Shown: positions 18,737 to 46,621 of the stretch, piece by piece
How the letters are laid out: every line of letters begins with the position of its first letter
Numbering within the stretch: position 1 is the first letter of the stretch
Translations under genes and position numbers: made by a program
Notes under the pieces: generated by a model
What the model was told of the DNA's origin: nothing
Databases searched by the model: none
The model's input: only the letters and a program-made list of their open reading frames with translations
From: Gammaproteobacteria bacterium
GTDB lineage: Bacteria > Pseudomonadota > Gammaproteobacteria > HK1
Length of the DNA stretch: 64,000 nt
Direction: 5' to 3'
NCBI GenBank assembly: GCA_965202895.1
Contig: OZ241901.1
Location: 3,850,770-3,914,769 of the forward strand

Positions 18737-18849
18737 GACGAGGCTCGGGGTTGAGTATCCCGGATCGCGTGAGTATGATTCGCCGCCAAGCGGCGCGGAG
18801 CACCGTGCGGGGCACGGTCGGCACGAATCGCGGCAGTGGAGGAGCGGGC

Positions 18850-29420: not shown

Positions 29421-29678
29421 CCCCGCGCGCTGTTCGTAACCTCCTGATATAGAGGGTGCAGAGAGGGGGTCGAGATATTCCTTGCCCCACGGGGACGGGC
29501 TGACTCCACGGTTTCGGGGCGGTTCGTGGGTCTGGTTGGTGGATTTCACCTCATGGAGCCGCTTGCGCGGGCACGGCGTCCTGGGAACGCGGGCGGGACA
29601 CAAGCGTTCCCAGGACGCCGTGCCCAAGAACGTTCGCGAGAGGCGTGTTTGGCGAAAACCCCACCGCGCACATGCCTC
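29421..29678 (+). repeat. type-1 MITE-like repeat, copy C (central hairpin shortened)
   Basis: It shares the termini and flanking modules of the other copies. The inner loop of the hairpin is deleted. Confidence 0.7.
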
Positions 29679-29817
29679 GAAGTGGTCCGAGGGGGGGCGC
29701 GCGGACCGAGGTGCTACAGTGGCGGACCGCCGACCGGGCCGAACCCACTCGACCACCGCGGCCCAACGCCCGGAATTTCCGACCCCCCGGCGTACCAAGG
29801 GCCGACGGCAGCAGGCA

Positions 29818-32800: not shown

Positions 32801-33291
32801 TGCCCCACCCCGAACGCGGGTCCGAGGACGTGCGGCGCCTGAAGCCGAACCCCGAGACCGAGACGACGGCGATGGAGGTCGTCATGGAGTACGAGAGGGA
32901 GCAAGGACGGCAGGTCTACGACGTCCACAGGGAGAACCTCGGCTACGACGTGACCAGCCTCGATCTCGCGTCGGGCGAGCTGCGGCTGATCGAGGTGAAG
33001 GGGCTGGCCGCCCCGGCCGGGAGCATCCTGCTGACGCCGAACGAGCGCCGGGTGGCCGAGGATCGGCGCGACTGCTACTGGCTCTACGTGGTGACGGGCT
33101 GTGCGGCGGAGCCCGAGCTGCAGGAACCGATCAGGGACCCCGCCCGGTTCCCGTGGCATGAGGTCAGGAAGGTGCAGCACTACCGGCTGGACGTGGATGC
33201 GATGCGCGGGGGTCGGCCCGAAGCCGGCGCCGGCCGGGGGGCGACCGATCGATCCCGCCGCGCCGGAACCACCGGAAGGGGCGCGCCATGA
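29818..33291 (+). CDS. SNF2-family helicase with C-terminal DUF3883 (PD-(D/E)xK-like) domain
   Basis: LPHQLEAV...LADDAGAGKT (motif I), VIVDEAHR (motif II), LLLTATPHKG, then the helicase C-terminal region (LIATEAAGEGINLQ...WNPNRLEQRMGRIHRYGQ). The C-terminus is GYDVTSLDL...LRLIEVKG...LTPNERRVAE...YWLYVV. ATG 29818 is in frame in ORF 29482..33291. Confidence 0.9.
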   Translation: MNGNPPLFEGQVLTGELFDEPMRIETIHANGPGAWDAGLVGVRSERFRRVTLTAEDVASLTVTDRTLSYDGDARLLRLGLQAYSLGIAYEFDPFFGLSISRVDPLPHQLEAVYEHLLKLPAVRFLLADDAGAGKTVMAGLLVRELKLRGLAERILVVCPANLAFQWQRELKEKFDEKFLVFKGGDVREQFGVNQWLEQKQIVTSLDLAKRGDVLPGLRQAHWDLVIVDEAHRMSARDEAHKSQRYRLGELLRDRADHILLLTATPHKGDPQNFTLFLQLLDRDAYADVRSIRKAMERQRAPFYLRRTKEAMIHFPERRADGRWAARPVFTKRIPRTASFAIDGAELDLYREVTQFVKRQSRRAAERQDDPRARAVGFLMSLYQRRLASSTCAMRRSLEKRAERLEDGLARAEDLVRTAPPGLPDPEDLDEMEDAERERIERQLDAVTLAGNAAQVREEVAELRQLAAKAKEVEGSDGEEKLGRLEKIMREEGFFDRPDQRLLLFTEFTDTLRYLMGRLERWGFRVGCIHGGMKPGSRDEPGTRLYAEQRFREGAIQVLIATEAAGEGINLQCCHVLFNYDIPWNPNRLEQRMGRIHRYGQRQDCLIFNFVAANTIEGRVLDRLLAKLQEIRDALDDDAVFNVVGEVLPGAQVERVLRDYYAGRLGDADLEDRLLKDVDEAHFRSICRTALEGLASKKLDLEMLVERRARAQERRVVPETIARFMRESARDAGLPLEPVGSLPHAFEPGRTPAALKAFEREASGKTASLADRYPRLSTDRETAEEHDLEWVTPGHPLFEALRRCSLARGRDAFSRGACFHSLEHEAPARLDFYRARFVDGLGRTIHERLFTVELVQGRAPALRAPDVLGDLSPAATPPGVPPPSIASSPEETPWLNENALMRLLREVRRERAAEVERIAGHVDLSLTEVLQRTDEEIGRASVDVEKGVAGAEGRLVQAEARHSEVLARRERRRKELGQQRAVTLQGVERMASALVLPHPERGSEDVRRLKPNPETETTAMEVVMEYEREQGRQVYDVHRENLGYDVTSLDLASGELRLIEVKGLAAPAGSILLTPNERRVAEDRRDCYWLYVVTGCAAEPELQEPIRDPARFPWHEVRKVQHYRLDVDAMRGGRPEAGAGRGATDRSRRAGTTGRGAP

Positions 33292-33334
33292 ACCAAGCGC
33301 CTGAGCCCGCACGTGTGCGTTCCATCGCCAGGAT

Positions 33335-33590
33335 CGTTTCACGCTGCGGAATCGGTTCGCGGGGGTGAACCCGGTTCGGTCGAATCGGAGCGGCGAAGGT
33401 CCGGGGAACGGCGCCTCCCACGGATGCGGGCGTCCTCCGAACGCTTGTGTCCCGCCCGCAAATGGGGCGGCAAGACCGCCGCCGATCGATGCGGGCGAGA
33501 CACAAGCGTCCGGAGGACGCGCCGTTCCCAGGAAGAGCGGTGGGTATCGATGCCTGGCCGCGAGTCGGTCGGCGTGAAAGGGCCTTGGTT
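33335..33590 (-). repeat. type-2 composite palindromic element (inverted)
   Basis: cgtttcacgctgcggaatcggttcgcggggg...central hairpin cgaacgcttgtgtcccgcccgca...tgcgggcgagacacaagcgtccg...gtcggcgtgaaaggg. Confidence 0.7.
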
Positions 33591-33672
33591 CCATCGCGCG
33601 ACGGGGCGCCTCTGCGGTGCGGTGTAAGGCGTATGATGGCGGGGGTCCGTTTCCCACCGGGACACACTCGCC

Positions 33673-34419
33673 ATGAGCGCCCCCGCCACCATGCACACCG
33701 GCCCCCTCGGCTCCACCATCCACGTCCTCCGCGCCGACGCCGACACCATCGCCGAGCTCGCCGCCATCGACTGGAACCGCTGCTTCCGCCGGGTCTGCCT
33801 CGATCCGGTGCGCGGGATCATCACCCTGATGGCGCCTTCGTTCCGCCACGAAGACCTGTCTGAAATCATCGGCAACGTCGTGGACGATGTGGGGGACGCC
33901 ATCACCAGCGCCACGAAGGGGATCCGCAGCACCCGGCTTCGCGGGCGGGGCGAGCCGCCCGGCACGGGGATGGAGCCCGACTGCGCGTTCTACGTCGGCG
34001 AGCGCGCCAGAGGCTTTTACGTGGCCCGCGCCGAAGGGGAGGCGGCAGCCGACGCCTTCGTCGAGCGCACTGCGCCCGACTTGGTGGTGGAGGTCGAGAT
34101 CACGCACGCCGACGAGGGAAAGGCCGAGCGCTACGGCCAGATGGGGGTGCGGGAGCTGTGGCGGCTGCATGGGCGCAGAGGGACGAGGGAGCTGCGGGCG
34201 GACTTTCTGGCCCTGGGTCCCGGGAGGGCGCCGCGCCGGCTCGGCGCCTCGGTGGTGCTGGAAGGGCTGACCCCGGATGACGTCTGCGAGGCGGTGGAAG
34301 AGGTCGGGGCCGGCGAGACCCGCCGCCAACGGGCGGAGGCGGTGGCCCGCATCGTGCGCCGTCGGCGGCAGGCGAGCGCGCGGGTGCGGGAGGAGGCGGC
34401 GGCGTACTCCGTCCACTGA
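33673..34419 (+). CDS. Uma2 (DUF820) family putative PD-(D/E)xK endonuclease, paralog 1
   Basis: ...ITLMAPSFRHEDL..., GMEPDCAFYVG, APDLVVEVEITHADEGKAERYGQMGVRELWRLH. The pattern is the Uma2 signature (P..H / E-PD / D-x-V-E-V / K..Y...GV.EYW). Confidence 0.8.
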   Translation: MSAPATMHTGPLGSTIHVLRADADTIAELAAIDWNRCFRRVCLDPVRGIITLMAPSFRHEDLSEIIGNVVDDVGDAITSATKGIRSTRLRGRGEPPGTGMEPDCAFYVGERARGFYVARAEGEAAADAFVERTAPDLVVEVEITHADEGKAERYGQMGVRELWRLHGRRGTRELRADFLALGPGRAPRRLGASVVLEGLTPDDVCEAVEEVGAGETRRQRAEAVARIVRRRRQASARVREEAAAYSVH

Positions 34420-34485
34420 GGCGAGCGCGAGCCGCCGATCCTGCGAAGAAGACGGCGCCGGAAGGGGCGCGCCACGAAGAAAACG

Positions 34486-34803
34486 CCCCGGGCGCTGTTT
34501 GCAACCTCTTGATATAGCGGGTGGAGGTCGGGGGTCGAGATATTTTTTACCCTACGGGGACGGGCTGACTCCACGGTTTCGGGGCGGTTCGTGGGTCTGG
34601 TTAGCGGATTTCACCTCACGGAGCCGCTTGCGCGGGCACGGCGTCCTGGGAACGCTTGTGTCCCGCCCGCATTTTCTTCCGGGCGTATCGCTCTCGTGCG
34701 GGCGGGACACCCGCGTCTGGAAGACGCGCCGTTCCCAGGACGCCGTGCCCAAGAACGTTCGCGAGAGGCGTGTTTGGCGAAAGCCCCACAGCGCACATGC
34801 CTC
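34486..34803 (+). repeat. type-1 MITE-like repeat, copy D
   Basis: Full-length copy located in the spacer between Uma2 paralogs 1 and 2. Confidence 0.75.
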
Positions 34804-34879
34804 ATCGCACGGCGGGGCCTACGCGGTGCGGTGGAAGGCGTATGATGGGGGGTCCGCTTCCCACCGGGACACACTCGCC

Positions 34880-35620
34880 ATGAACGCCCCCGCCACCATG
34901 CACACCGGCCCCCTCGGCTCCACCATCCACGTCCTCCACGCCGACGCCGGCACCATCGCCGAGCTGGCCGCCATCGACTGGAACCGCTGTTTCCGCCGGG
35001 TCTGCCTCGACCCGGTGCGCGGGATCATCACCCTGATGGCGCCTTCGTTCCGCCACGACGATCTGGCCAGGATCCTGGACGATATCGTGGACATTGCCGG
35101 GAGTGCGACCGCCGGCGTATCGAAGGGGATCCGCAGCACCCGGCTTCGGGGACGGGGCGAGCCGCCCGGCACGGGGATGGAGCCCGATTGCGCGTTCTAC
35201 GTCGGCGAGCGCGCCAGAGGCTTCTACGCGGCCCGCGCCGAAGGGGAGGCGGCCGCCTTCGTCGAACGGACCGCGCCCGACCTGGTGGTGGAGGTCGAGA
35301 TCACGCACGCCGACGAGGGCAAGGCCGAACGCTACGGTGAGATGGGGGTGCGGGAGCTGTGGCGGCTGCATGGCCGCAAGGAGACGAGGGAGCTGCGGGC
35401 GGACTTCCTCGCCCTGGGTCCCGGGAGCGCGCCGCGCCGGCTCGACACCTCGGTGGTGCTGGAGGGGCTGACCCCGGATGACGTCTGCGAGGCGGTGGAA
35501 GAGGTCGGGGCCGGCCAGACCCACAGCCAACGGGCGGAGGCGGTGGCCCGCATCGTGCGCCGTCGGCGGCAGGCGAGCGCGCGGGTGCGGGAGGAGGCGG
35601 CGGCGTACTCCGTCCACTGA
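34880..35620 (+). CDS. Uma2 (DUF820) family putative endonuclease, paralog 2
   Basis: MNAPATMHTGPLGSTIHVLHADAGT... It is collinear with paralog 1. The ATG is in frame in ORF 34277..35620. Confidence 0.8.
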   Translation: MNAPATMHTGPLGSTIHVLHADAGTIAELAAIDWNRCFRRVCLDPVRGIITLMAPSFRHDDLARILDDIVDIAGSATAGVSKGIRSTRLRGRGEPPGTGMEPDCAFYVGERARGFYAARAEGEAAAFVERTAPDLVVEVEITHADEGKAERYGEMGVRELWRLHGRKETRELRADFLALGPGSAPRRLDTSVVLEGLTPDDVCEAVEEVGAGQTHSQRAEAVARIVRRRRQASARVREEAAAYSVH

Positions 35621-35786
35621 GGCGAGCGTGAGACACCGATCCTGCGAGGAAGACGGCGTCGGAAGGGGCGCGCCATGAACGAAGGGCCTGAACACGCACG
35701 TGTGCGTTCCATCGCGCGGCGGCGCTTGCGCGGTGCGGTGGAAGGCGTATGATGGCGAGTGTCCGTTTCCCGCCGGGACCCCCGCC

Positions 35787-36527
35787 ATGAACGCCCCCGC
35801 CACCATGCACACCGGCCCCCTCGGCTCCACCATCCACGTCCTCCACGCCGACGCCGGCACCATCGCCGAGCTCGCCGCCATCGACTGGAACCGCTGTTTC
35901 CGCCGGGTCTGCCTCGACCCGGTGCGCGGGATCATCACCCTGATGGCGCCCTCCCGTCTCCATGAGGACCTGTCCGAGATTCTCGGTGACATCGTGAAAG
36001 GCGCGGGAAACGCCATCGCCACCAAGAGCATCGGCAGCACCCGGCTTCGGGGACGGGGCGAGCCGCCCGGTACGGGGATGGAGCCCGATTGCGCGTTCTA
36101 CGTCGGCGAGCGCGCCAGAGGCTACTACGCGGTCCAGGCCGAAGGGGAAGCGGCCCTGGACGCCTTCGTTGAGCGCACCGCGCCCGACCTGGTGGTCGAG
36201 GTCGAGATCACGCACGTCGATGAGAGCAAGATCGAGCGATACGGTGAGATAGGGGTGCGGGAGCTGTGGCGGTTGCACGGGCGCAGAGGGACGAGGGAGC
36301 GGCGGGCGGATTTCCTCGCCCTGCGGGCCGGGAGGGCGCCGCGCCGGCTCGACGCCTCGATGGTGCTGGAAGGGCTGACCCCGGATGACGTCTGCGAGGC
36401 GGTGGAAGCGGTCGGGACCAGCCTGACCCACGACCAACGGACGGAGGCGGTGGCCCGAATCGTGCGCCGTCGGCGGCAGGCGAGCGTGCGGGTGCGGGAG
36501 GAGGCGGCGGCGTACTCCGTCCACTGA
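35787..36527 (+). CDS. Uma2 (DUF820) family putative endonuclease, paralog 3
   Basis: Same architecture as paralogs 1 and 2. The ATG is in frame in ORF 35700..36527. Confidence 0.8.
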   Translation: MNAPATMHTGPLGSTIHVLHADAGTIAELAAIDWNRCFRRVCLDPVRGIITLMAPSRLHEDLSEILGDIVKGAGNAIATKSIGSTRLRGRGEPPGTGMEPDCAFYVGERARGYYAVQAEGEAALDAFVERTAPDLVVEVEITHVDESKIERYGEIGVRELWRLHGRRGTRERRADFLALRAGRAPRRLDASMVLEGLTPDDVCEAVEAVGTSLTHDQRTEAVARIVRRRRQASVRVREEAAAYSVH

Positions 36528-36593
36528 AACGAGCGCGACCCGCCGGTCATGCGAAGAAGATGGCTTTGGAAGGGGCGCGCCATGAAGAAGGAG

Positions 36594-36911
36594 CCCCGGG
36601 CGCTGTTTGTAACCTATTGATATAGCGGGTGGAGATCGGGGTCGAGATATTCTTTACCCCCACGGAGACGGCGTTCTTCCGTGGTTTGGGTTCGGTTCGA
36701 GGGGGTTGCTGGCGGATTTCACCCCGCGGAGCCGCTTGCGCGGGCACGGCGTCCTGGGAACGCTTGTGTCCCGCCCGCATTTTCTTCCGGGTGCATCGCT
36801 CTCGTGCGGGCGGGACGCCCGCGTCTGGAAGACGCGCCGTTCCCAGGATGCCGTGCCCAAGAACGTTCGCGAGAGGCGTGTTTGGCGAAAGCCCCACAGC
36901 GCACATGCCTC
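36594..36911 (+). repeat. type-1 MITE-like repeat, copy E
   Basis: Full-length copy located in the spacer between Uma2 paralogs 3 and 4. Confidence 0.75.
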
Positions 36912-36988
36912 ATCGCACGGCGGCGCCTTCCGCGGTGCGGTGGAAGGCGTATGATGGCGGGTGTCCGTTTCCCACCGGGACCCCCGGC

Positions 36989-37735
36989 ATGAACGCCCCC
37001 GCCACCATGCACACCGGCCCCCTCGGCTCCACCATCCACGTCCTCCACGCCGACGCCGGCACCATCGCCGAGCTCGCCGCCATCGACTGGAACCGCTGTT
37101 TCCGCCGGGTCTGCCTCGACCCGGTGCGCGGGATCATCACCCTGATGGCGCCATCGTTCCCCCACGACGACCTGTCCGAAATCATCGGCGACGTCGTGAA
37201 AGACGCGGGAAGCGCCATCGCCGGCGTCATCAAGAGCATCGGCAGCACCCGGCTTCGGGGACGGGGCGAGCCGCCCGGCACGGGGATGGAGCCCGACTGC
37301 GCGTTCTACGTCGGCGAGCGCGCCAGAGGCTTTTATGCGGCCCGCGCCGATGGGGATGCGGCGGCCCTCGCCTTCGTCGAGCGCACCGCGCCCGACCTGG
37401 TGGTCGAGGTCGAGATCACGCATGTCGATGAGAGCAAGATCGAGCGCTACGGTGAGATGGGGGTGCGGGAGCTGTGGCGGTTGCACGGGCGCAAAGGGAC
37501 GAGGGAGCTGCGGGCGGACTTCCTCGCCCTGCGGGCCGGGAACGATCCGCGCCGGCTCGACGCTTCGGTGGTGCTGGAAGGACTGACCCCGGATGACGTC
37601 TGCGAGGCGGTAAAGGCGGTCGGGGACAGCCAGGCCCGCGACCAACAGACGGAGGCGGTGGCCCGCATCGTGCGCCGGCGGCGGCAGGCGAGCGCGCGGG
37701 TGCGGGAGGAGGCTGCGGCGTACTCCGTCCACTGA
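36989..37735 (+). CDS. Uma2 (DUF820) family putative endonuclease, paralog 4
   Basis: Same architecture as the other paralogs. The ATG is in frame in ORF 36629..37735. Confidence 0.8.
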   Translation: MNAPATMHTGPLGSTIHVLHADAGTIAELAAIDWNRCFRRVCLDPVRGIITLMAPSFPHDDLSEIIGDVVKDAGSAIAGVIKSIGSTRLRGRGEPPGTGMEPDCAFYVGERARGFYAARADGDAAALAFVERTAPDLVVEVEITHVDESKIERYGEMGVRELWRLHGRKGTRELRADFLALRAGNDPRRLDASVVLEGLTPDDVCEAVKAVGDSQARDQQTEAVARIVRRRRQASARVREEAAAYSVH

Positions 37736-37913
37736 GGCGAGCGCGACCCGCACCCTGTACAATCGACGGACCTCGGGCGCACGGGGTGCTGAAGAAGATG
37801 GAATCGAAGGAGGTTCTCCGCCGTGTGCCGAAACCATCGGAAGGGGCGCTCGCCACGAGCGGAATACCCCCCCGACCCGTACCATGACCAACCAACCACG
37901 GAGGCCAGGAGAC

Positions 37914-38120
37914 ATGGCTGATCACATACTGACGACCCGCGCGGTCCGACGACCGTACCAGACCTTCCCTGCCATGCCGGATCACGTTCGGTATGATCCC
38001 GGAAGGGGTTATTGGCTCAAAGACGGAGAGCCGCTGGTCGCTGCGCCCGATTTCTTGAGCGACATTTCCAACAGCAAGAAGTGTGATCAGGAAACAGGAG
38101 AGGATCAGAAAGGCGAATGA
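37914..38120 (+). CDS. small ORF (68 aa; 78 aa from ATG 37884), candidate substrate/precursor peptide of the downstream ATP-grasp
   Basis: GGAGG (37900-37904) lies 9 nt before ATG 37914. The stop overlaps the next start (ATGA at 38117-38120). The C-terminal tail FLSDISNSKKCDQETGEDQKGE is rich in Ser/Thr, Lys and Asp/Glu. There is no homology evidence. Confidence 0.4.
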   Translation: MADHILTTRAVRRPYQTFPAMPDHVRYDPGRGYWLKDGEPLVAAPDFLSDISNSKKCDQETGEDQKGE

Positions 38121-39079
38121 ATCCCCGTGTTCTCATACTTTCAGGCCTGTACGATTTTTCGGCGGACCTCGTTGCCTTGCGGCTGCGACACAGCGGAGCG
38201 CCTTATATCCGCCTGAATAGAGAACAGCTTGCCGATCATTCACTTACGCTCGATCCCCTCGTCCCCGAGCTGACCATACGTGGCCCGGCAGGCACCTGCA
38301 ACGTGGGTCAGGATCTGCGATCCATCTGGTTCCGCCAACCCGTTTTCTTGCGAAATACCCCTCCGACCCCGCTTTCGCTCCAGGATCAGTTTGAACGTTC
38401 TCAATGGACGGCCTTTCTTCGGGCGCTATGTGTCTTCCGCGACGCGGCTTGGATGAATTTTCCGGCCGCCACGTATCTTGCGGAATCCAAACCGTATCAG
38501 CTATCCATTGCATCCAGTTGCGGATTTCAGGTTCCGGAAACGCTGGTGACCAACGATGCACATCGCATCCGTAGCGCGTTTCCAGGAACTCTCGTCATCA
38601 AATCGCTGGACACGGTGTTGCTGCGTGATGGAGACGACTGTCTGTTCACCTATACGACCCTGGATCCGGAAAATGAATTAACGGAAGAAAACATCAATAC
38701 GGCGCCCCTGCTCGCACAATATGCCTTGGAAGACAAGATCGATCTGCGAGTCACCGTGATCGGCGATGAGATATTCGCGGTCCGTATACTTTCGCATGGA
38801 TCCGGGATTCCCGGCGACTGGCGTTTGATACCGAAAGCCGATCTTGAATACGAGGACTTTGCGCCGACCGAAGATATGGCTCGATGCTGCTTCCTGTTGA
38901 CACGCCGTCTTGGTCTTTCCTTTTCCGCCATCGATCTGATTGAAACCACCCAAGGGATATTTTTCATCGAAGTCAATCCTACCGGGGAATGGGGATGGCT
39001 ATCAACGCCTGAGCGGCCAATGGATCGCGCCATAGCTTCCTGGCTGGAGAATCCTTCCTGTGCGAAGGAGTGGAGCTGA
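38117..39079 (+). CDS. ATP-grasp enzyme, microviridin-type (MdnB/C, MvdC/D-like) peptide ligase family
   Basis: 320 aa. The segments ESKPYQLSIASSCGFQVPETLVTND, DLRVTVIGDEIFAV, GDWR and FSAIDLIETTQGIFFIEVNPTGEWGWL match, from memory, the conserved blocks of graspetide maturases (..LRITIVG..IF.., DWR, AIDMI....IFLEINPVGEF.WL). The gene lies in AT-richer DNA. Confidence 0.85.
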   Translation: MNPRVLILSGLYDFSADLVALRLRHSGAPYIRLNREQLADHSLTLDPLVPELTIRGPAGTCNVGQDLRSIWFRQPVFLRNTPPTPLSLQDQFERSQWTAFLRALCVFRDAAWMNFPAATYLAESKPYQLSIASSCGFQVPETLVTNDAHRIRSAFPGTLVIKSLDTVLLRDGDDCLFTYTTLDPENELTEENINTAPLLAQYALEDKIDLRVTVIGDEIFAVRILSHGSGIPGDWRLIPKADLEYEDFAPTEDMARCCFLLTRRLGLSFSAIDLIETTQGIFFIEVNPTGEWGWLSTPERPMDRAIASWLENPSCAKEWS

Positions 39080-39084
39080 TTCCG

Positions 39085-39708
39085 ATGCGTATTCCTCGGT
39101 TTCTTGAAGAGATATTCCCCTTTGTCAGTTATCTCGTATACTCTCGCCGCCTGAGACGACGTAGTGAATCGGGAGAAATCCTGAGCGAGAGAGAATTCAA
39201 AAACTACATCGATCTTTCCGAAGACATGATCAAGGAAAGATTGAAGGAGGAACACCAGCGGGCGTCGACGATGGATGAGAAGACATCGAAGTTGACGTTT
39301 TCAATTTCCATGGCACTGACTTTCGTTGGAGCCGCGGTAGTCTTCTTGAAAAATACCATATCTCCCGTCGCTATGCAGGCCGGTCTTTCCGTGCTGATAA
39401 ATTCCCTGATCTTCCTCGGTTTGTTTTATAGCACAATGGCTGGTCTGGTGGCGCTGGGCGCGCTGCGTACTGCGCCCCGGCACGGTTACGGCACCCAATT
39501 CTTGCTGGAACAGAATAAGCCCATGAATGAGAAATTGGCGGAATCCCTTGCTCGTCAGGAAGTCATCAACCTTGTTCGGCATTTACGCAATGAAGCAGCC
39601 TTTCAGTGTTTGAGAAACGGTCTTTTGCTCTTTATCGTAGTGATCATGATGTTTACGGGAATTTTCGTATGGCGGTTTCTTTCTGCGTTCTCATTGAGCA
39701 TTAGTTGA
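39085..39708 (+). CDS. multi-pass membrane protein (hypothetical; effector- or transporter-like)
   Basis: GGAG lies 8 nt before ATG 39085, and the track gives GTG 39070 as an alternative start. The N-terminal ~65 aa are charged and soluble. Hydrophobic segments follow: LTFSISMALTFVGAAVVFL, LSVLINSLIFLGLFYSTMAGLVALGAL and LLLFIVVIMMFTGIFVWRFLSAF. The TGA at 39706-39708 directly abuts the next ATG. Confidence 0.65.
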   Translation: MRIPRFLEEIFPFVSYLVYSRRLRRRSESGEILSEREFKNYIDLSEDMIKERLKEEHQRASTMDEKTSKLTFSISMALTFVGAAVVFLKNTISPVAMQAGLSVLINSLIFLGLFYSTMAGLVALGALRTAPRHGYGTQFLLEQNKPMNEKLAESLARQEVINLVRHLRNEAAFQCLRNGLLLFIVVIMMFTGIFVWRFLSAFSLSIS

Positions 39709-42708
39709 ATGATCCCCAAGGCGTGCAAGCGGCTGGCGGAGGTCGATTTCCCCATCGCCGAGGTCTCGCGGCACGCGGCGCGGGAGAAGTCGATCCGGCA
39801 CGGGCATCCTTCGACCCTGCATCTGTGGTGGGCGCGCCGCCCGCTGGCCTCCTCGCGGGCGGTGCTGATGGCGCTGCTGCTGCCGGACCCCTGCGACCCG
39901 CAATGCCCGGAGGCGTTCAGGAAGGAGGCGCGGCGGATCCTTCTCGGGATGCACGGGCGTCCGGGTGGATGGACCGGCGCCATCCGGTCGGACGAAGGGT
40001 TGCGGCGGATCCTTCTCAAGTTCATCGCCGACTTCGCCGATTGGGACCATGCCGCGGATCGCATCTGGCTCGATACGGGCCGCGCGCTGGTGAGGGCGGC
40101 GCACGGCGAGGGGCCGCCTCTGGTCGTGGATCCGTTCGCGGGCGGCGGCTCGATCCCGCTCGAAGCCCTGCGGCTCGGCTGCGAGGCGTTCGCCAGCGAC
40201 CTGAACCCGGTCGCCTGCCTGATCCTCAAGGTGATGCTGGAGGACGTCCCGCGCCACGGGCCGGGGCTGGCCGACGAGCTGCGCAGGGTCGGCGGCGAGA
40301 TCAGGCAGGCGGCGGAACGGGAACTGGCCGGTCTCTACCCCGCGGACCTGGACGGGAGCACGCCCATCGCCTACTTGTGGGCGCGCACGGTGCTCTGCGA
40401 GGCCCCGAGCTGCGGGGCGGAGATCCCGCTGCTGCGTTCGCTGTGGCTTGCGAAGAAGGCGGTCTTCAGGAGGGAGCGCGGCGAGCGGATCAAGGTCAGA
40501 GGCCGTCAGGCGCTTCGGTATCGGATCGTGCGAGCGGCCAAGGGGCCGCCGCGGGTCGAGTGGGAAGTGTTCGAGCCGGCCACCGACAAGGACGTGCGCG
40601 ACGGCACGGTCACGCGGGCGAAGGCCGCCTGCCCGTGCTGCGGCGCGGTCCTGCCGCCGGAGCGGGTGCGGGTGCAGCTCTCCGAGCAGCGCGGCGGCGC
40701 GGACATGATCTTCGACGGCAAAGGGAGGCGCATCGGCGGCGCGCGCATGACCGCGGTGGTGACGCTGAAGGAGAACGAGCCGGGCCGGCGCTATCGGCTG
40801 CCGACGGATGCCGATTATGCGGCGGTGCACGAGGCGCAGGCGCGGCTGGCAGGGATTCTCGACGAATGGGAGCGGGGCGGGAGGCAGGGGCTTTGCCCGG
40901 TGCCGGATGAACCGATTTCGCTGAACGAGATTCGACGCATCAGCGTACCAATCTACGGAATGACGACATGGGGGGACCTGTTCACGGCGCGGCAGAAGGT
41001 AGTCTTGGTCGAACTCCTCCTCGCCATCCGGAAAACCGATGTAGTCGACACGGAGCATATGCTCGCCTGTGCGTTCAACCGTATATCCATGAGCAACATG
41101 TCTTGCACTCGATGGAACGCTGTAGCAGAGAAGATGCAGCATACCTTTGGCCGGCAAGCTCTTCCCATCGTGTGGGATTTCGCCGAGATCGCAGTGACGG
41201 CGGAAGCTCCAGGTAACTGGAAAAGTGGATACTGTCTTGTAGCTGACGTTGTCGACGCGGCGCGTAGTATGCAGAGTGCGCAAACTCAATTCGCCGACGC
41301 AATAGAACATCCCCTGCCCGACGAAGCCGCCGGAGTCTGGTTCACCGATCCACCCTACTACGATGCCGTCCCGTATGCGCACTTGTCGGATTTCTTCTTC
41401 GTCTGGCTCAAGCGCGCCGTGCCGGAACAAATGATGACTCTTTGCAATCTCGTCGATCCGCAAGACTTGACTCCGAAGGAAAGGGAGATTGTCGTTGATC
41501 GACCGCATCGGCTCAGCACTTCGACCAAGACGGCAGAGACCTACGAATCAGGAATGGCTCGGGCGTTTACCGAAGGGCGACGTATCCTGCACCAGGACGG
41601 TATCGGATCGGTCGTCTTCGCCCACAAGACAACCGAGGGCTGGGAGGCTCTGCTGACCGGGATAATCAGCGGCGGTTGGACCATTACCGGCTCGTGGCCG
41701 GTAGCGACGGAGATGGGTTCTCGTCTCAATGCCCGTGATACCGCGTCCCTCGCCACCAGCGTCCATCTCGTCTGCCGGCCTCGGCCCGACGACGCGCCGG
41801 TGGGCGATTGGGCGGACGTGCTGCGCGAGCTGCCGAGGCGCGTGGGCGACTGGATGGAGCGGCTTCAGGGCGAGGGCGTGCGCGGGGCGGATCTGGTCTT
41901 CGCCTGTATCGGCCCGGCGCTGGAGATCTTCAGCCGGTACTCGGTCGTCGAGACGCCGGAAGGTGCGGAAGTCCGTCTGCCCGTCTACTTGGAACGGGTC
42001 TGGGAGGTGGTGGGCCGGACCGCGCTCGAGACCGTGCTCGGCGCCGGAGAGGCGAAGGCCCGCAACGGGCAGGTCGGCGCGCTGGAGGAGGACGCCCGCC
42101 TCACGGCCCTGTTCCTCTGGACCCTCCAGAGCACGGAGGACCCCGAGGAGAACGACGCGAAGGAAGCACGGGACGAGGAAGGGAACGAAGCGGGCAGGGG
42201 GCTCGCGCTCCCCTTCGACGTGGTGCGCCGTTTCGCCCAGCCCATGGGGATCGACCTCGACGCCTGGACGGACCGGATCATCGGACAGGACAAGGGGGTG
42301 GTGCGCCTGCTGCCGGTTCTCGAACGTGCGCAACGGCTCTTCGGCGAGGACGGGGCCGGTGCGGCGGCGGAATGGATCGAAGCGGACCCGGGCGGGGCTG
42401 CCCAGCTCGACCTCTTTCCCTCGGCGCAGGCCCGACCGCGAAGCAGGAGGCATCGCCGACGCAAGCCGTCCATCGTGGAAGACGGCGCCGAGCTTCAGGC
42501 GGTCGACGCGACGACGCTGGATCGCGTCCATGCGGCCATGCTCCTCCAGGCAAGCGGTCACGCCAATGCGCTCAGGACGCTGATCGCCGCGGAGCAGGAA
42601 CGCGGCCCGGACTTCCTGCGGCTCGCCAACTCGCTCTCGGCCCTGTACTCGAGAGGCAGCGAGGAGAAGCGGTTGCTCGACGCGATGCTGCTGGCGGTCC
42701 CCCGGTGA
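39709..42708 (+). CDS. DUF1156 (COG1743-like) DNA methyltransferase with Zn-ribbon
   Basis: N-terminus: FPIAEVSRHAAREKSIRHGHPSTLHLWWARRP. SAM motif I: VVDPFAGGGSIPLEA. Cys pairs: CEAPSCG...CPCCG. Catalytic motif: TDPPYYD. Confidence 0.9.
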   Translation: MIPKACKRLAEVDFPIAEVSRHAAREKSIRHGHPSTLHLWWARRPLASSRAVLMALLLPDPCDPQCPEAFRKEARRILLGMHGRPGGWTGAIRSDEGLRRILLKFIADFADWDHAADRIWLDTGRALVRAAHGEGPPLVVDPFAGGGSIPLEALRLGCEAFASDLNPVACLILKVMLEDVPRHGPGLADELRRVGGEIRQAAERELAGLYPADLDGSTPIAYLWARTVLCEAPSCGAEIPLLRSLWLAKKAVFRRERGERIKVRGRQALRYRIVRAAKGPPRVEWEVFEPATDKDVRDGTVTRAKAACPCCGAVLPPERVRVQLSEQRGGADMIFDGKGRRIGGARMTAVVTLKENEPGRRYRLPTDADYAAVHEAQARLAGILDEWERGGRQGLCPVPDEPISLNEIRRISVPIYGMTTWGDLFTARQKVVLVELLLAIRKTDVVDTEHMLACAFNRISMSNMSCTRWNAVAEKMQHTFGRQALPIVWDFAEIAVTAEAPGNWKSGYCLVADVVDAARSMQSAQTQFADAIEHPLPDEAAGVWFTDPPYYDAVPYAHLSDFFFVWLKRAVPEQMMTLCNLVDPQDLTPKEREIVVDRPHRLSTSTKTAETYESGMARAFTEGRRILHQDGIGSVVFAHKTTEGWEALLTGIISGGWTITGSWPVATEMGSRLNARDTASLATSVHLVCRPRPDDAPVGDWADVLRELPRRVGDWMERLQGEGVRGADLVFACIGPALEIFSRYSVVETPEGAEVRLPVYLERVWEVVGRTALETVLGAGEAKARNGQVGALEEDARLTALFLWTLQSTEDPEENDAKEARDEEGNEAGRGLALPFDVVRRFAQPMGIDLDAWTDRIIGQDKGVVRLLPVLERAQRLFGEDGAGAAAEWIEADPGGAAQLDLFPSAQARPRSRRHRRRKPSIVEDGAELQAVDATTLDRVHAAMLLQASGHANALRTLIAAEQERGPDFLRLANSLSALYSRGSEEKRLLDAMLLAVPR

Positions 42709-42716
42709 CCAGGGTC

Positions 42717-43060
42717 CTTTCATGCCGACCGACTCGCGGCCGGGCATCAATGCCCACCGCTCTTCGTGGGAACGGCGTGTCCTTCGGACGCGGGGGTCCT
42801 GCCCACATCGATCGGCGGCGGTTTTGCCCTCCCATTGAAGGTGCGCCGCCGATCCTCGTCACCCGGATCCGACGCCCGCATCGATCGGCGGCGGTCTTGC
42901 CGTCCCATTTGCGGGCGGGACGCCCGCGTTCCGCAGGACGCGCCGTTCCCAGGACGCCCGCATCCGTGGGAGGCGCCGTCCCCGGCACCTTCGCCGCTCT
43001 CATTCGACCGAACCGGGTTCACCCCCGCGAACCGATTCCGCGGCGTGAAACGACCCTGCC
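42717..43060 (+). repeat. type-2 composite palindromic element (extended, two hairpin modules)
   Basis: cctttcatgccgaccgactcgcggcc...catcaatgcccaccgc...gcgggcgggacgcccgcgttcc...ccgaaccgggttcacccccgcgaaccgattccgcggcgtgaaacg. Confidence 0.7.
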
Positions 43061-43077
43061 GGTGACGGTCCCCCGAG

Positions 43078-43379
43078 GCTCGGGCGATGTTCGTAGATTA
43101 TTGATATATAAAGTGTAGAGAGGGGGTCGAGATATTTTTTACCCCCACAGAGATGGCGTTGTTCCGTGGTTTGGAGTCGGTTCGAGGGGCATTTCGGCGG
43201 ATTTCACCCCACGGAGCCTCTTGCGCGGGCACGGCGTCCTGGGAACGCGGGCGTCCCGCCCGCATTTTCTTCCGGGCGCTTCGCCCCCGTGCGGGCGGGA
43301 CGCCCGCGTTCCCAGGACGCCGTGCCCAAGAGCGTTCGCGAGAGGGTGCCCGGCGAAAACTCCACAGCGCGCATGCCTC
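43078..43379 (+). repeat. type-1 MITE-like repeat, copy F
   Basis: Full-length copy lying immediately after the type-2 element and upstream of the DUF499 gene. Confidence 0.75.
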
Positions 43380-43512
43380 GTCCCCCGGTGACGAAATGAC
43401 AGGCAGATGAAAAGACTGCACAATGCGTGAGGCAGCGGCGCGCATATCGGGCCGGCGAAGCTGCGGACGTTCGAGCCGTTCCCGCGTGAAGCCAGCCGAA
43501 CCGGAGATCCGA

Positions 43513-46290
43513 ATGGACCCCTGGTACAAGGTCGTGGCCCCTCGCAAGGAGGTGCGCGAGGGCCGCTCGTTCAGCCCGGATGAGTTCGCGATCGCTCTCG
43601 AGCAGGTGGTCGCGGGAACCGCGCCCGAGGACTACCGGGATGCGGCGCAGTTCTTCTCCCGCACCTGCTTCACCCGCGCCCTGAAGGAGCACACCGGGAT
43701 GGTGCTCCGGAGGCTCTCGGGGAAGACCGGGAACACCGCCCCGGTCGTGACCCTGATCACCCAGTTCGGCGGCGGCAAGACGCACACGCTCGCCTCGCTC
43801 TACCACCTCGCCGAGGCCGGCGAAGACGCCCTGGAGCTCCCCGGGGTCCTGGAGCTGCTGGCCGACGAGAACGTCGACTCGCCCCCGTCCGCCCAGGTCG
43901 GGGTGTTCGTCGGCAACGCGTGGGACCCGATGGAAGGCCGGGAGACGCCCTGGATCGATCTGGCCCGGCAGCTTGCCGGCGAGCAGGGGGTCCGGGCGCT
44001 CGGAACCGACGCGAGGGCGACCCCGCCCGGAACGGAAGCGCTCGGCCGGGTCTTCGCCGCCGCGAACGCCCCCGTGCTGCTGCTCTTCGACGAGGTGCTC
44101 AACTTCGTGAACCGCCACCGCGGCATGGCGGAGAAGTTCCATGCCTTCCTCCAGAACCTGACCGTAGCGGTCACCGGCGCCACACACGCCGCCGCGGTCA
44201 TCAGCCTGCCGCGGAGCCAGGTCGAGATGACCGCGTGGGACCAGGAATGGCAGGAGCGGATCACCAAGGTCGTCCGCCGCGTCGCCCGCGACCTGATCGC
44301 CAACGACGAGTCGGAGATCAGCGAGGTGGTGCGGCGGCGGCTGTTCGAGGACCCGGGCAGCGAGAGGGTTCGCCGAAGGGTCGCGAAGACCTACGCGGAC
44401 TGGTGCTTCGAGAGGAGGCATCAGCTTCCGCCGGAGTGGATGGCCGTCGATACGGCGGCGACCGAAGCCAGGGCGCGCGAGCTCCTGAGAGATCGGTTCG
44501 ATGCCTGCTACCCGTTCCATCCCGCGACCCTCTCGGTGTTCCAGCGCAAGTGGCGGGCCCTGAGCCAGTTCCAGCAGACCCGGGGGATCCTCGCGATGCT
44601 CGGCCAATGGATCTCCCGGGCCGCCGCCAGGCACTTCCGCGAAGCACGGACCGAGCCGCTGATCACCTTGGGATCGGCGCCTCTGGAGGTCCCCGAATTT
44701 CGCGCCGTCGTCCTTGGACAGCTGGGGGAATCGAGGCTCGACGCGGCGATCGAGGCCGATCTGGCCGGGGCGACGGCGCACGCCAGGGCGCTGGATGCGG
44801 ACACGGCCGGGCCGCTTCGGGACATCCACCGGCGGGTGGGAGCCGCGATCCTCTTCGAGTCTTCCGGCGGACAGGTGGACAAGGTGGCGCATCTGCCCGA
44901 GCTTCGCTTCGCGCTCGGGGAGCCCGAGGTGGACACCACGACCATCGACAGCTCCGCCACCGCCCTCGAGAGCGCGGGGTTCTTCCTCCGGAAGGTGGGT
45001 ACGGACGGCTTCCGGGTCCACCATCAAGCGACCTTGAAGAAGGTCGTCAGCGATCGGAGGGCATCGCTCGACGAGGAGAGCGAGATCAAGCCCGCCATGA
45101 GGAGCCTGGTCGGCAACGGGTTCGCGAAGGGCGCCGAGCTGCCCCTGGTCAGGTTTCCCTCGGACGGCAAGGCGATCGAGGACCGGCCGCGCCTCACGCT
45201 GGTCGTCGTGGACCCGGAGACCGAGTGGAGCGGCGATGGCCGGACACGAGAATGCCTCGTACGGTGGACGCGGGAGCGCGGAACGTCGCCGCGGCTCTAT
45301 CCGGGCTCCCTCGTCTGGTGCGTGAAGAAGCCGGGGCGGGAGCTTCGAGACAAGGTCGAGCACTGGCTCGCCTGGCAGAGGGTCGAGCGGGAGGTCGCGG
45401 AAGGGATACTCGGAGCGGAGTACGACCGGGCCGACAGGACGGAGGTACGCGCGAAGCGGAAGGAGGCGGAAGATGCGGCCCTGGACGAGGTGTGGGGCAG
45501 CTACCGTTTCGCCGTCTTCGCCGACTCCGGCCGGGAGGGAGGCATCGGAAGCATCGACCTCGGGGCCGGGCACTCGAGCGCGAACGAGACGCTCTGCGGC
45601 CGGGTCGTCGCCGCCCTGAAGTCCGAGGGGCTGCTGAACGAAGGGATCGGGGCCGGCTACCTCGACCGGCACTGGCCGCCGGCCCTCGAGGAGGCGGGCG
45701 CATGGCCTCTCACGAGCCTGCGGCAGAGCTTCCTCGACGGCTCGCTGACCCGTCTGGTGGATCCCGAGAAGGTGCTGCAACGGAAGGTCGTCGAGTTCGT
45801 CGAGAGCGGCGCGTTCGGGCTGGCGTCGGGGACCAGGGAGGAGGGCGGGTACGAACGGCTGTGGTATGCCGAGCCGGTCGGGCGCGACGAAGTCGCCTTC
45901 GAGCGGGACGTCTTCCTGCTGACCAGGGCGAAGGCGGAGCAGCTTCGGGCCGCCCCGCCCGGCGGCGCGCCGCAAGCGGAGGGAGGACCGGATCCGGAGA
46001 CGACGCACAGGCCCGCGCCGGAGACGGAGACAGGGCCGCCCCCCGGTCCTGCGCCCGGGCCCCGCGAGCGGACCGCGACCCTTCGCATGAAGGGCGCCGT
46101 GCCGCCCGAGGTCTGGAACCGTCTCGGGACGAAGGTCATCCCGAAGCTGCGGGCCGGCGACGGGCTCACGGTGGGCGTGGACTTCCACGTGAGCCTCCCC
46201 GCACGGCAGGCGGAGGCGCTGGAATCGGAGCTTCGGCAGGTGCTCGCCGACCTTGAATTGACCGCTGCCGTGCGCATGGAACGGTCATAG
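43513..46290 (+). CDS. DUF499 (COG1483-like) ATPase
   Basis: MDPWYKVVAPRKEVREGRSFSPDEFAIALEQVV...ITQFGGGKTHTLASLYHL (Walker A)...VLLLFDEV (Walker B-like). GGAG lies 6 nt before ATG 43513, which is in frame in ORF 43423..46290. Confidence 0.9.
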   Translation: MDPWYKVVAPRKEVREGRSFSPDEFAIALEQVVAGTAPEDYRDAAQFFSRTCFTRALKEHTGMVLRRLSGKTGNTAPVVTLITQFGGGKTHTLASLYHLAEAGEDALELPGVLELLADENVDSPPSAQVGVFVGNAWDPMEGRETPWIDLARQLAGEQGVRALGTDARATPPGTEALGRVFAAANAPVLLLFDEVLNFVNRHRGMAEKFHAFLQNLTVAVTGATHAAAVISLPRSQVEMTAWDQEWQERITKVVRRVARDLIANDESEISEVVRRRLFEDPGSERVRRRVAKTYADWCFERRHQLPPEWMAVDTAATEARARELLRDRFDACYPFHPATLSVFQRKWRALSQFQQTRGILAMLGQWISRAAARHFREARTEPLITLGSAPLEVPEFRAVVLGQLGESRLDAAIEADLAGATAHARALDADTAGPLRDIHRRVGAAILFESSGGQVDKVAHLPELRFALGEPEVDTTTIDSSATALESAGFFLRKVGTDGFRVHHQATLKKVVSDRRASLDEESEIKPAMRSLVGNGFAKGAELPLVRFPSDGKAIEDRPRLTLVVVDPETEWSGDGRTRECLVRWTRERGTSPRLYPGSLVWCVKKPGRELRDKVEHWLAWQRVEREVAEGILGAEYDRADRTEVRAKRKEAEDAALDEVWGSYRFAVFADSGREGGIGSIDLGAGHSSANETLCGRVVAALKSEGLLNEGIGAGYLDRHWPPALEEAGAWPLTSLRQSFLDGSLTRLVDPEKVLQRKVVEFVESGAFGLASGTREEGGYERLWYAEPVGRDEVAFERDVFLLTRAKAEQLRAAPPGGAPQAEGGPDPETTHRPAPETETGPPPGPAPGPRERTATLRMKGAVPPEVWNRLGTKVIPKLRAGDGLTVGVDFHVSLPARQAEALESELRQVLADLELTAAVRMERS

Positions 46291-46607
46291 AAGCCGGGCG
46301 CCGGCGCCTTGCCGGCCAGCCGGAACCAGAACAAGGGCGAGGTGTGCAGCCACGGCCCGGACGGGAGCCCCCGCCTGTTCATCGACGCCCGACTGCGACG
46401 AGGGGAGCTTCGACGTCTTCCCGAGACGTCCCCTTGTTTTCATCCACGACGACGATCCTGCAATCCTCGAAGACCATCCGGACGCGCCTCGACGAGGCCG
46501 CGACGCGGGGGAGGGGGGAATACCCCCGAGGCGACGGAAAGCGTCGATCACGGCCAACCGTGCCTGCCGCCCCGGATCGGCTTCGGTCGAATGGCGACGC
46601 CGACTTT

Positions 46608-46621
46608 CTGATTGAGGTCAA
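46608..46621. promoter_or_regulatory. FNR/CRP-family-like box CTGAT-TGAG-GTCAA upstream of narK1
   Basis: 8/10 match to TTGAT-N4-ATCAA with an intact TGA-N6-TCA core. It lies about 140 bp upstream of the narK1 ATG. Confidence 0.3.

Follow-up and report, generated by a model that had tools for sequence, protein, structure and literature searches.

Three tightly packed genes are found inside a defence operon in the 64,000-nt stretch of DNA considered here (the window; all coordinates are positions within it). The question is whether they form a new arm of this defence system or a separate element that was inserted into it. The original prediction left room for both, naming a hitch-hiking graspetide cluster on one side and, on the other, an arm of the defence module with an accessory or effector role. 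We consider it reasonably probable that these genes are a self-contained mobile graspetide cassette of the marinomonasin type (group 7) that was inserted between hmaA and hmaB of an Hma operon.

The 1.85-kb cassette is placed on the plus strand between a four-copy Uma2 array and the hmaB gene of the Hma system. Its GC content is 0.528 (positions 37859-39708), compared with 0.702 for the whole window. Windows of the same size have a mean of 0.701 with a standard deviation of 0.032, and the cassette is the lowest-GC stretch of all. The GC3 values are 0.56-0.61 in the three cassette genes versus 0.89-0.91 in the HmaA, Uma2 and HmaC genes. The edges of the cassette, 37864..39716, were set by cross-genome nucleotide homology. 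In blastn comparisons the loci L082 and L009 are 82% identical to the window over exactly 37864-39708/39716, and the homology ends at the cassette edges. The cassette has been acquired horizontally and is foreign in composition. All three genes are intact and overlap or abut, encoding a 68-aa precursor peptide, a 320-aa ATP-grasp ligase, and a 207-aa membrane protein. The initial description of a foreign, AT-richer segment with three tightly packed same-strand ORFs agrees with these values and with the gene starts and overlaps, which were confirmed. A scan for promoters and terminators in and around the cassette yielded no convincing signal.

The first gene (37914..38120, plus strand) encodes a candidate graspetide precursor with a leader (residues 1-53) and a core (residues 54-68). 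The small ORF extends from 37884 to 38120. Its true start is the ATG at 37914, which is preceded by GGAGG 10 nt upstream and from which all homologues align. Thus of the two lengths proposed earlier, 68 and 78 aa, the former is correct, and the proposed overlap of the precursor stop with the ligase start, ATGA at 38117-38120, is indeed present. The gene is called with the same length of 68 aa in public assemblies. The leader has conserved motifs HILL..A and YD...G.W. The core, SKKCDQETGEDQKGE, is encoded at 38073..38117 on the plus strand and is the predicted cross-linked part. Its residues are S-K-K-C-D-Q-E-T-G-E-D-Q-K-G-E, and the homologue alignment gives the near-invariant C-terminal pattern (S/T)KKxDxETGEDQKG(E/Q) across phyla. 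A peptide secreted for competition would not usually be so nearly invariant from Firmicutes to Proteobacteria. The ligase gene is adjoined by the gene of a small precursor that combines a leader with a core rich in Ser/Thr/Lys donors and Asp/Glu acceptors, and in 73 of 80 loci a precursor homologue directly precedes the ligase. Searches of Pfam, PADLOC and NCBIfam with the precursor produced no match.

The second gene (38117..39079, plus strand) encodes a predicted graspetide macrocyclase of the ATP-grasp superfamily. Full-length matches were observed to the NCBIfam maturase profiles TIGR04187 (3e-50), MvdC (5e-34) and MvdD (8e-23). Their bit scores against the curated cut-offs are 171/350 for TIGR04187 (the GRASP_SAV_5884 subfamily), 118/425 for MvdC and 81/475 for MvdD. 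As all of them are under the cut-offs, the ligase belongs to no curated NCBIfam equivalog, though it is related to them. A profile search of the PDB retrieved graspetide ligases exclusively, namely AMdnB, CdnC, MdnB/C and PsnB (7m4s, 9bou, 7mgv, 5ig8, 5ig9, 7drm; 3e-34 to 5e-7). Together with the maturase profiles, this substantiates the earlier assignment of the enzyme to graspetide-type ligases. We found 971 homologues of the ligase; the family-invariant residues, including the E-x-N metal motif, are retained in the window copy. It has no family match in PADLOC-DB 2.0.

Judged by their sequences, the genes are a member of the described group 7/marinomonasin graspetide family, in line with the suggestion of a hitch-hiking RiPP cluster: both precursor and ligase belong to it. 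The precursor fits the group 7 consensus HILL..A...P....YD...G.W......TKKxDxETGEDQKGE. The precursor family "cluster171", with the consensus ...TKKxDVETGEDQKGE, carries the label gr_07, and Marinomonas fungiae JCM 18476 is among its members (Makarova et al. 2022, supplement, PMC8939145). Group 7 is linked to marinomonasin, which is reported to be a tricyclic peptide with three dehydrations (PMC9576775), and M. fungiae is its producer; the cluster is credited to Kaweewan et al. 2021 (PMID 34480236). The marinomonasin locus of M. fungiae JCM 18476 is one of the loci in our set (L029). It has the same gene order, precursor, ATP-grasp ligase, membrane protein, as the window. In a pairwise comparison the two ligases are 51% identical over residues 1-310, and the precursors have equal length and common leader motifs. 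The window core differs from the marinomonasin core, TKKCDVETGEDQKGE, in two positions (S for T, Q for V). Marinomonasin is said to contain one ester and two isopeptide bonds. On the other hand, the host of the window copy is a 70%-GC bacterium, its cassette is situated inside an Hma operon and abuts hmaB, and its product is predicted from the genes alone.

The microviridin-type ligases MdnB/MdnC, AMdnB, CdnC and PsnB (PDB 5ig8, 5ig9, 7m4s, 7mgv, 7drm) are of the same enzyme clade and length as the window enzyme, and these systems likewise have a leader-guided ligase that cross-links side chains of a ribosomal peptide. However, the cassette has a single ligase instead of the MdnB/MdnC pair, and no GNAT, ABC transporter or C39 protease gene. 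Its core is built on another motif, which is far more strongly conserved, and there is a dedicated small membrane protein.

This third obligate gene of the cassette (39085..39708, plus strand; homologues begin at the ATG at 39085) encodes a three-helix membrane protein of 207 aa, which is encoded downstream of the ligase in 77 of 81 loci; among the set of 80 loci it is present in 64-77. The length had been given as about 207 aa, with the TGA at 39706-39708 directly followed by the hmaB ATG at 39709, and these coordinates are correct. The hydrophobic segments are approximately 68-92, 99-127 and 172-200, and the counts of K and R predict an N-in topology. The AF2 model is all-helical with pLDDT 84.5. 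The alignment of 45 sequences contains invariant polar residues, and in the predicted topology these conserved polar motifs face the cytoplasm. A Foldseek comparison of the model with the PDB revealed no fold match (best E 0.45), and the window protein produced only noise in Pfam, PADLOC and NCBIfam (DUF5693, SecY, CARF_TM; E=0.077 for CARF_TM). Among the 45 homologues, weak matches to DUF6249 were observed in 20 and to Holin-X (Phage_holin_3_6) in 8, the latter with the best E 0.006. The holin match likely reflects the composition of the transmembrane segments. The comparison with SLATT and DUF5706 models that had been proposed as a check gives no match for the window protein: neither SLATT nor Pycsar-type (DUF5706) profiles match the window protein or occur among the families matched by its 45 homologues, and a precomputed match to PF18967 is present in one of 105 homologues. 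The protein nevertheless resembles the membrane effectors of abortive infection (Pycsar PycTM/DUF5706, SLATT, CBASS 2TM, holin-like proteins) in being small and helical, in its predicted cytoplasm-facing motifs, and in having its gene at the end of a compact operon within a defence island. It differs from them in having no significant Pfam, PADLOC or PDB fold match and no nucleotide cyclase partner in the cassette.

The host operon was described initially as a DUF1156-DUF499-helicase operon with the cassette physically inside it. PADLOC identifies it as Hma, with all three components in one locus, and it is a bona fide Hma operon. The hmaA gene (29482..33291; PADLOC HmaA 5.4e-169) encodes an SNF2/DEAD helicase. 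It is followed by four tandem Uma2-family genes with repeated spacers (33673..37735; Pfam Uma2, PADLOC PDC-S17), whose units share 86-91% nucleotide identity. After the cassette come the DUF1156 methyltransferase gene hmaB (39709..42708; Pfam DUF1156 3e-22, PADLOC HmaB 3e-105, NCBIfam DUF1156_antiphage 6e-55) and the DUF499 ATPase gene hmaC (43423..46290; PADLOC HmaC 4.6e-89, with Pfam DUF499 on the same gene in L081). All of these are on the plus strand. Compared with the Hma system as known (HmaA helicase, HmaB DUF1156 methylase, HmaC DUF499 ATPase), the window copy bears the four Uma2 genes and the cassette as extra cargo between hmaA and hmaB.

The details of the insertion site differ from the original prediction. 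The 20-mer GGAAGGGGCGC(G/T)CGCCA(C/T)GA, thought to be a shared motif, matches only at 37839-37858, even if three mismatches are allowed. Repeat analysis showed that the truly shared motif is the 18-mer GGAAGGGGCGCGCCA(T/C)GA at 33274, 34460, 35661 and 36568; an over-permissive fuzzy motif search returned mostly noise. The first copy, 33274-33291, is the 3' end of hmaA with an overlapping ATGA stop/start. The junction motif directly left of the cassette (37839..37858, plus strand) is a variant fifth copy of GGAAGGGGCGCGCCAYGA with a 2-nt insertion. MITE-like elements of about 300 nt (34488-34804 and 36588-36912) begin 10-20 nt past two of the 18-mer copies, so their placement relative to the motif was recognised properly, although the letters of the motif were not. 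The hmaA-hmaB junction carries unrelated cargo elsewhere as well (Uma2 array, NTP_transf_2, 153-aa and 506-aa genes in L069), and is a hotspot for such cargo. As the last cassette stop abuts the hmaB ATG, the expression of hmaB has probably become coupled to read-through from the foreign cassette genes.

The cassette is widespread across phyla, and the possibility that it is unique to this genome, which had been named as refuting the original prediction, does not hold. In 80 loci from many phyla, only the three cassette genes are conserved together; the flanks differ everywhere, and no other gene family is present in more than 7 of the 80 loci. In 66 of 70 loci the GC content of the cassette is lower than that of its flanks, with a median difference of 10 GC points. 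Its taxonomic spread is patchy and very broad. No copy was found in E. coli genomes. Plasmid-borne cassettes exist, one of them broken by an IS element (L094). In phage collections the matches were limited to one IMG/VR contig and to GenBank phages at less than 33% identity, and thus the cassette does not appear to be phage-borne. Of the 80 genome loci, only L025 and L069 have Hma genes within 10 kb of the cassette; besides these two, Hma is near it only in the window's own lineage (L086). L086 has the same cassette-hmaB architecture, including the abutting TGA and ATG, the same four-copy Uma2 array, and a ligase 84% identical to that of the window. The cassettes of L025 and L069 are divergent in sequence; that of L025 is downstream of HmaC, and that of L069 is oriented divergently from HmaA. 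In L082 and L009 the cassette is intact, and behind it 23 residues of the DUF1156 N-terminus are left as a relic of a decayed hmaB. L081, where a gap of 527 nt seems to precede hmaB, was considered as a variant and rejected: it is the same organism (99.97% identity) in a 2x-coverage assembly with indels, and its gene calls were set aside.

The neighbours of the cassette are very often defence genes, which runs against the condition, set as refuting, that the ATP-grasp homologues have no such neighbours. Among the matches listed, the adjoining genes include AbiEi/Eii, Type ISP and Type IIG RM, BREX PglZ/BrxL, HmaC, DUF5131 candidate-system proteins, HamB (4e-273), LmuA (2e-267), ThsA (1e-152), ThsB, DruE, MkoA, PDC-S13 and PDC-S22. 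Farther out in the same loci, again among the matches listed, are PglX, DruD, HamA, SIR2-pAgo, NsnC and PD-T7-5. The systems flanking the cassettes are RM, BREX, Hachiman, Thoeris, Lamassu, Druantia, AbiE, Gabija-like systems and pAgo. Genes of RM, toxin-antitoxin, Abi or mobile elements are present in all of the 12 fully annotated neighbourhoods, and RM-like neighbours were seen in at least 15 loci by single-seed phmmer, an insensitive method; the association is a tally of the gene neighbours in these loci. Some cassette loci are flanked by housekeeping genes as well. The literature searched contained no report that marinomonasin-type cassettes are associated with defence islands.

These observations bear on the explanations that compete with a self-contained mobile graspetide cassette. 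In one of them the cassette would serve this Hma system as an accessory or effector arm, such as a membrane effector gated by peptide modification that Hma triggers. The zero distance from the cassette to hmaB within the operon, the same architecture in L086, and the Hma genes near the divergent cassettes of L025 and L069, if in other arrangements, speak for it. However, Hma is found near two loci of 80 and in one relative of the window, no flanking family is common to more than seven loci, unrelated cargo occupies the hmaA-hmaB junction in other genomes, HmaA, HmaB and HmaC of L025 are adjacent with no cassette gene between them, and the cassette outlives Hma in L082 and L009. Since the three genes travel alone, are AT-rich and are kept beside an hmaB relic, they constitute an autonomous mobile module rather than an Hma effector arm, and we regard the latter as very unlikely. 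As the cassette-hmaB junction is kept in L086 across approximately 16% ligase divergence, some functional link to Hma may exist in the window's lineage. It is still harder to believe that the cassette has at present no function in this genome and is decaying as an inert passenger, which its un-ameliorated foreign composition and the lack of a strong promoter or terminator inside it could suggest. The three ORFs are intact and have every family-invariant residue, the Shine-Dalgarno sequence and the start/stop overlaps are preserved, and the proteins of the window, L086 and L082 are full-length despite a nucleotide difference of about 18%.

The idea of a broader role in conflict survives, as a property of the cassette family and not of Hma, because the family is widespread and very often adjoined by defence genes. 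Given its consistent residence in defence islands and plasmids, a conflict-related role of the peptide is our leading guess. One possibility, which we put forward tentatively, is that the family is a widespread unrecognised system against phages or plasmids and other mobile elements, in which the cross-linked peptide would gate a membrane effector or block a conserved viral protease. In one version the peptide controls the membrane protein, a membrane-disrupting abortive-infection effector; in another, it inhibits a phage protease inside the cell. Its position in an Hma operon would then be a usual case of systems stacked in a defence island. This is consistent with the adjoining RM, BREX, AbiE, Hachiman, Lamassu, Thoeris and Druantia genes, with the 12 annotated neighbourhoods, and with the compact AT-rich operon, plasmid carriage and patchy broad spread that are typical of defence cargo. 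A small membrane protein is common to many abortive-infection systems, and the invariance of the core points to a conserved partner inside the cell. On the other hand, the argument is one of guilt by association. None of the three proteins matches a PADLOC model, no SLATT or Pycsar-type signature was seen in the membrane protein, phages hardly carry the family at all, and housekeeping genes are found beside some loci. A labile "antitoxin" role would be awkward for graspetides, which are protease-resistant and stable. Toxin-antitoxin modules and other selfish cargo produce the same pattern of neighbourhoods. A selfish addiction module of the toxin-antitoxin type, with a toxic membrane protein neutralised by the peptide and ligase, would explain persistence on plasmids and islands with no benefit to the host. 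The tight three-gene operon with its conserved translational overlap, the plasmid carriage, the IS-broken plasmid copy and the adjoining classical pairs (HicAB, ParE, MazE, RES, AbiE) are compatible with such a module. However, toxicity is a postulate here, antitoxins do not typically consist of an ATP-consuming enzyme and a stable cross-linked peptide, and at least part of the marinomonasin cluster has been expressed in E. coli. We think an addiction module unlikely. We know of no bioactivity of group 7 graspetides, and in PMC8939145 their membrane protein is given no clear role.

For the mobile graspetide cassette, the following order of events can be proposed from the established chemistry of graspetide ligases. 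The 53-residue leader would dock on the ATP-grasp enzyme through its conserved motifs. The ligase would then spend ATP to activate Asp/Glu side chains of the core, and the activated residues would be joined to Ser/Thr hydroxyl and Lys amino groups, resulting in a compact tricyclic peptide. At the membrane, the modified peptide is most likely taken over by the membrane-anchored helical protein, which would export, anchor or scaffold it. Export or anchoring is a guess, since neither the sequence nor the fold of the membrane protein has an informative match, and genes for a leader protease or a recognisable transporter are missing from the cassette. It would take no part in the Hma mechanism.

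Thus the cassette can be explained as a mobile graspetide cluster of a described family in the hmaA-hmaB hotspot, rather than as a new arm of Hma. A side effect of the insertion is that hmaB apparently depends on read-through from foreign genes. Across phyla, the family behaves like defence-island cargo: it is AT-rich, is found on plasmids and genomic islands, and has an almost invariant core. Were the anti-phage role to prove true, it would provide a function for a family of graspetide RiPPs, and peptide macrocyclisation would join the chemistry of bacterial immunity. If it proves false, the family would still illustrate how natural-product clusters hitch-hike in defence islands.

The segment at window positions 37859-39708 (plus strand) has a GC content of 52.8%, against 70.2% for the window (standard deviation of same-size windows, 3.2 points). 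It is the stretch of minimum GC anywhere in the 64 kb, with sharp edges. Its three genes have a GC3 of 0.56-0.61, compared with 0.89-0.91 for hmaA, Uma2 and hmaC. The comparison of same-size windows bears out the AT-richer segment of the original prediction, and the ORF coordinates agree with its three packed plus-strand ORFs. The small ORF, for which 68-78 codons had been proposed, is present; its true start is the ATG at 37914 (68 aa), as GGAGG lies 10 nt upstream and the homologue alignment begins there. Its stop overlaps the start of the ligase gene (38117..39079, 320 aa) within ATGA at 38117-38120. The membrane-protein gene (ATG at 39085, 207 aa) ends with TGA at 39706-39708, directly followed by the hmaB ATG at 39709, and translation of hmaB is now probably coupled to the cassette. 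Candidate promoters are an extended -10-like TGTACAAT at 37755-37762 of the window, TGTATAAT at about 9405-9412 of L082, and TTGACT-17-TACATT at about 9725-9755 of L086, the latter two being loci from the window's lineage; a consensus promoter scan reported none of the three.

The ligase has full-length matches to TIGR04187 (3e-50), MvdC (5e-34) and MvdD (8e-23), all scoring under the curated cut-offs, and the profile of its family retrieved only graspetide ligases from PDB (AMdnB, CdnC, MdnB/C, PsnB). In the alignment of precursor homologues, the leader is moderately conserved (HILL..A.R.P... and YD...G.W), and the C-terminus is near-invariant, (S/T)KKxDxETGEDQKG(E/Q). The latter is the consensus that the supplement of Makarova et al. 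2022 (PMC8939145) gives for 'cluster171' of group gr_07. The cluster includes Marinomonas fungiae JCM 18476, and our locus L029 is the same M. fungiae locus. Marinomonasin, according to citing papers a tricyclic graspetide, comes from this species, and PMC9576775 ties group 7 to marinomonasin with three dehydrations. Therefore, the ligase matches, the precursor core and the identity of L029 with the marinomonasin locus assign the cassette, by sequence, to a described graspetide family, the marinomonasin type. Three loci (L045, L071, L075) have two tandem precursor genes 5' of one ligase, both ending in the conserved core.

The membrane protein has no explanatory match in Pfam, PADLOC, NCBIfam or PDB folds. 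In an alignment of 45 sequences, 23 positions are invariant, and 21 of these hold a polar residue or glycine (e.g. E8, E9, R52, E56, D64, K69, T129, G136, T137, E159, N162, R168, N169, E170, R177, N178). AF2 predicts long helices with good confidence (pLDDT 84.5), and hydropathy indicates three membrane segments. Judged by the distribution of K+R, the conserved motifs, which are in the N-terminus and the 130-172 loop, face the cytoplasm. Makarova et al. 2022 mention a graspetide-associated cluster of an 'uncharacterized membrane protein' with unclear role, which may or may not be the cassette protein.

With each species represented by a single genome, the family survey yielded 263 relatives. 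The 80 loci analysed come from Proteobacteria, Acidobacteriota, Chloroflexota, Firmicutes, Bacteroidota, Myxococcota and other taxa. A precursor homologue lies immediately 5' of the ligase in 73 of the 80 loci, in many of these with the same one-base overlap. The membrane-protein homologue is immediately 3' in 64/80 loci by tblastn and in 77/81 by ORF clustering. When all ORFs of the 80 loci were clustered, no family beyond the three cassette genes occurred in more than seven loci. Of 70 loci compared, 66 have a cassette of lower GC than the flanks (median difference 10 GC points), and therefore the low GC content is a family trait rather than a local oddity. Eight plasmids carry members at no less than 43% identity; no member was found in E. 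coli genomes, and the family is practically absent from phage collections. In a Mesorhizobium plasmid (L094) the cassette is broken by IS66, the ligase is truncated, and a Tn3 transposase lies in the flank.

PADLOC was run, as two batches of loci, on the two nearest ORFs to either side of the cassette. Among the matches listed for 36 loci were AbiEi/Eii, Type IIG and Type I RM, DrmMI-like methylases, HmaC, PglZ, BrxL and PDC-M30B/M41B; among those listed for another 31 loci were HamB (4e-273), LmuA (2e-267), ThsA, ThsB, DruE, MkoA, Type I and IIG RM, AbiE, PDC-S13 and PDC-S22. Farther out in these loci, at distances of 5.5 kb or more, the ORFs gave, among the matches listed, PglZ/PglX, DruD, HamA, SIR2-pAgo, ThsB, NsnC and PD-T7-5. 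As defence matches are both adjacent and distant, the cassette lies inside multi-system defence islands. Targeted scans found directly adjacent Type ISP RM (L004), Type IIG RM (L015, L019, L065, L074, L078) and BREX ends (L014, L070). The last two come from unrelated bacteria, Rhodothermales and Desulfotomaculum, with the cassette just downstream of the pglZ-brxL end. In L082 a Type ISP RM gene is upstream of the cassette. Each of the 12 neighbourhoods with full annotation, seven from metagenomes and five from plasmids, contains RM, toxin-antitoxin, Abi, SIR2, OLD-UvrD, ABC-3C, integrase or transposase genes. Housekeeping genes also occur among the neighbours. An AAA_21 ATPase and DUF4276 pair recurs near cassettes of the window clade (L086 15650-18221, L087 6404-8205).

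By PADLOC, the host locus is the Hma system, with hmaA at 29482..33291 (5e-169), hmaB/DUF1156 at 39709..42708 (3e-105) and hmaC/DUF499 at 43423..46290 (5e-89), all on the plus strand; the island is bordered by pheT and narGH. Between hmaA and the cassette are four tandem Uma2-family genes (33673-37735, starts 33673, 34880, 35787, 36989; 246-248 aa), 'putative restriction endonucleases' similar to PADLOC PDC-S17, in repeat units sharing 86-91% nucleotide identity. L086 has the same four-copy array (6083-9674). Every unit is headed by the 18-mer GGAAGGGGCGCGCCA(T/C)GA (33274-33291, 34460, 35661, 36568). Since copy 1 is the hmaA 3' end, where the TGA stop overlaps ATG (33288-33291), the motif looks like the original junction of hmaA with the next gene, SD-like GGAAGGGG plus ATGA, duplicated with each inserted unit: there is one GGAAGGGGCGCGCCAYGA per unit, as if cargo had been added repeatedly at this junction. 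Copy 5 (37839-37858), with a 2-nt insertion, is directly left of the cassette. A motif at this place had been predicted, but the 20-mer then given matches copy 5 only. The predicted MITE-like repeats were also recovered, two motif copies having a palindromic element of about 300 nt just 3'. These MITE/REP-like elements form five copies that share 80-86% identity and have a long palindrome inside (18424-18737, 27793-28092 on the minus strand, 34488-34804, 36588-36912, 43075-43379); the copy in the hmaB-hmaC interval includes a terminator-like hairpin at 43247-43263. Within hmaB, a second low-GC patch (40909-41589, GC 0.557, GC3 0.63) coincides with the sole part lacking nucleotide homology to hmaB of L086 and L069, and GC is also low at the matching position of L086; the patch looks like an exchanged variable, perhaps specificity, segment. 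L081, another public assembly from the same organism (window 28118-46953, 99.97% identical, 2x coverage, with indels), has a 527-nt gap before hmaB; this is an artefact of indels shifting the hmaB call and is absent from the window.

Only two of the 80 genome loci have Hma genes at most 10 kb from the cassette, both with divergent cassettes and in differing arrangements, downstream of hmaC in L025 and in divergent orientation from hmaA in L069. L086 (ligase 84% identical) has the order hmaA, four Uma2 genes, cassette, hmaB and keeps the abutment of the membrane-gene stop and hmaB start; no DUF499 gene was found within 9 kb of its hmaB. Other cargo at the hmaA-hmaB junction includes NTP_transf_2 (L086) and genes of 153 and 506 aa (L069), and the junction behaves as a permissive insertion site. 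In L082 and L009, from the window's lineage (ligase 88% identical), nucleotide homology spans window 37864-39708/39716 and an upstream-spacer piece containing the variant motif. No hmaB gene follows the cassette there, only a 23-residue relic from the N-terminus of DUF1156 (HmaB), 74% identical, directly 3' of the intact cassette (11621-11689 in both). Because of this relic, the cassette is taken to have adjoined hmaB in this lineage too, Hma having decayed afterwards.

That the cassette survived intact is direct evidence against an effector arm dependent on Hma, one of the two original proposals, and we regard such a role as very improbable. The original interpretation is supported in part, through the other proposal, a hitch-hiking graspetide cluster, which agrees with the described family and the autonomy of the cassette. 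We tend to favour, with some reservation, a self-contained graspetide cassette of the marinomonasin type, which entered the Hma operon as a hitch-hiker at a cargo hotspot and is not mechanistically part of Hma; it would yield a tricyclic C-terminal peptide, which the dedicated membrane protein may handle. The main alternative, clearly less probable, is that the family itself may be a defence or conflict module, which would fit the invariant core, the membrane protein, the lack of a protease and a transporter, and the neighbourhoods. An addiction module or an inert passenger are minor, unlikely possibilities. Our literature search found no paper tying the marinomonasin-type cassette family to defence islands. 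The interest of the cassette lies in the family-wide association with defence islands.
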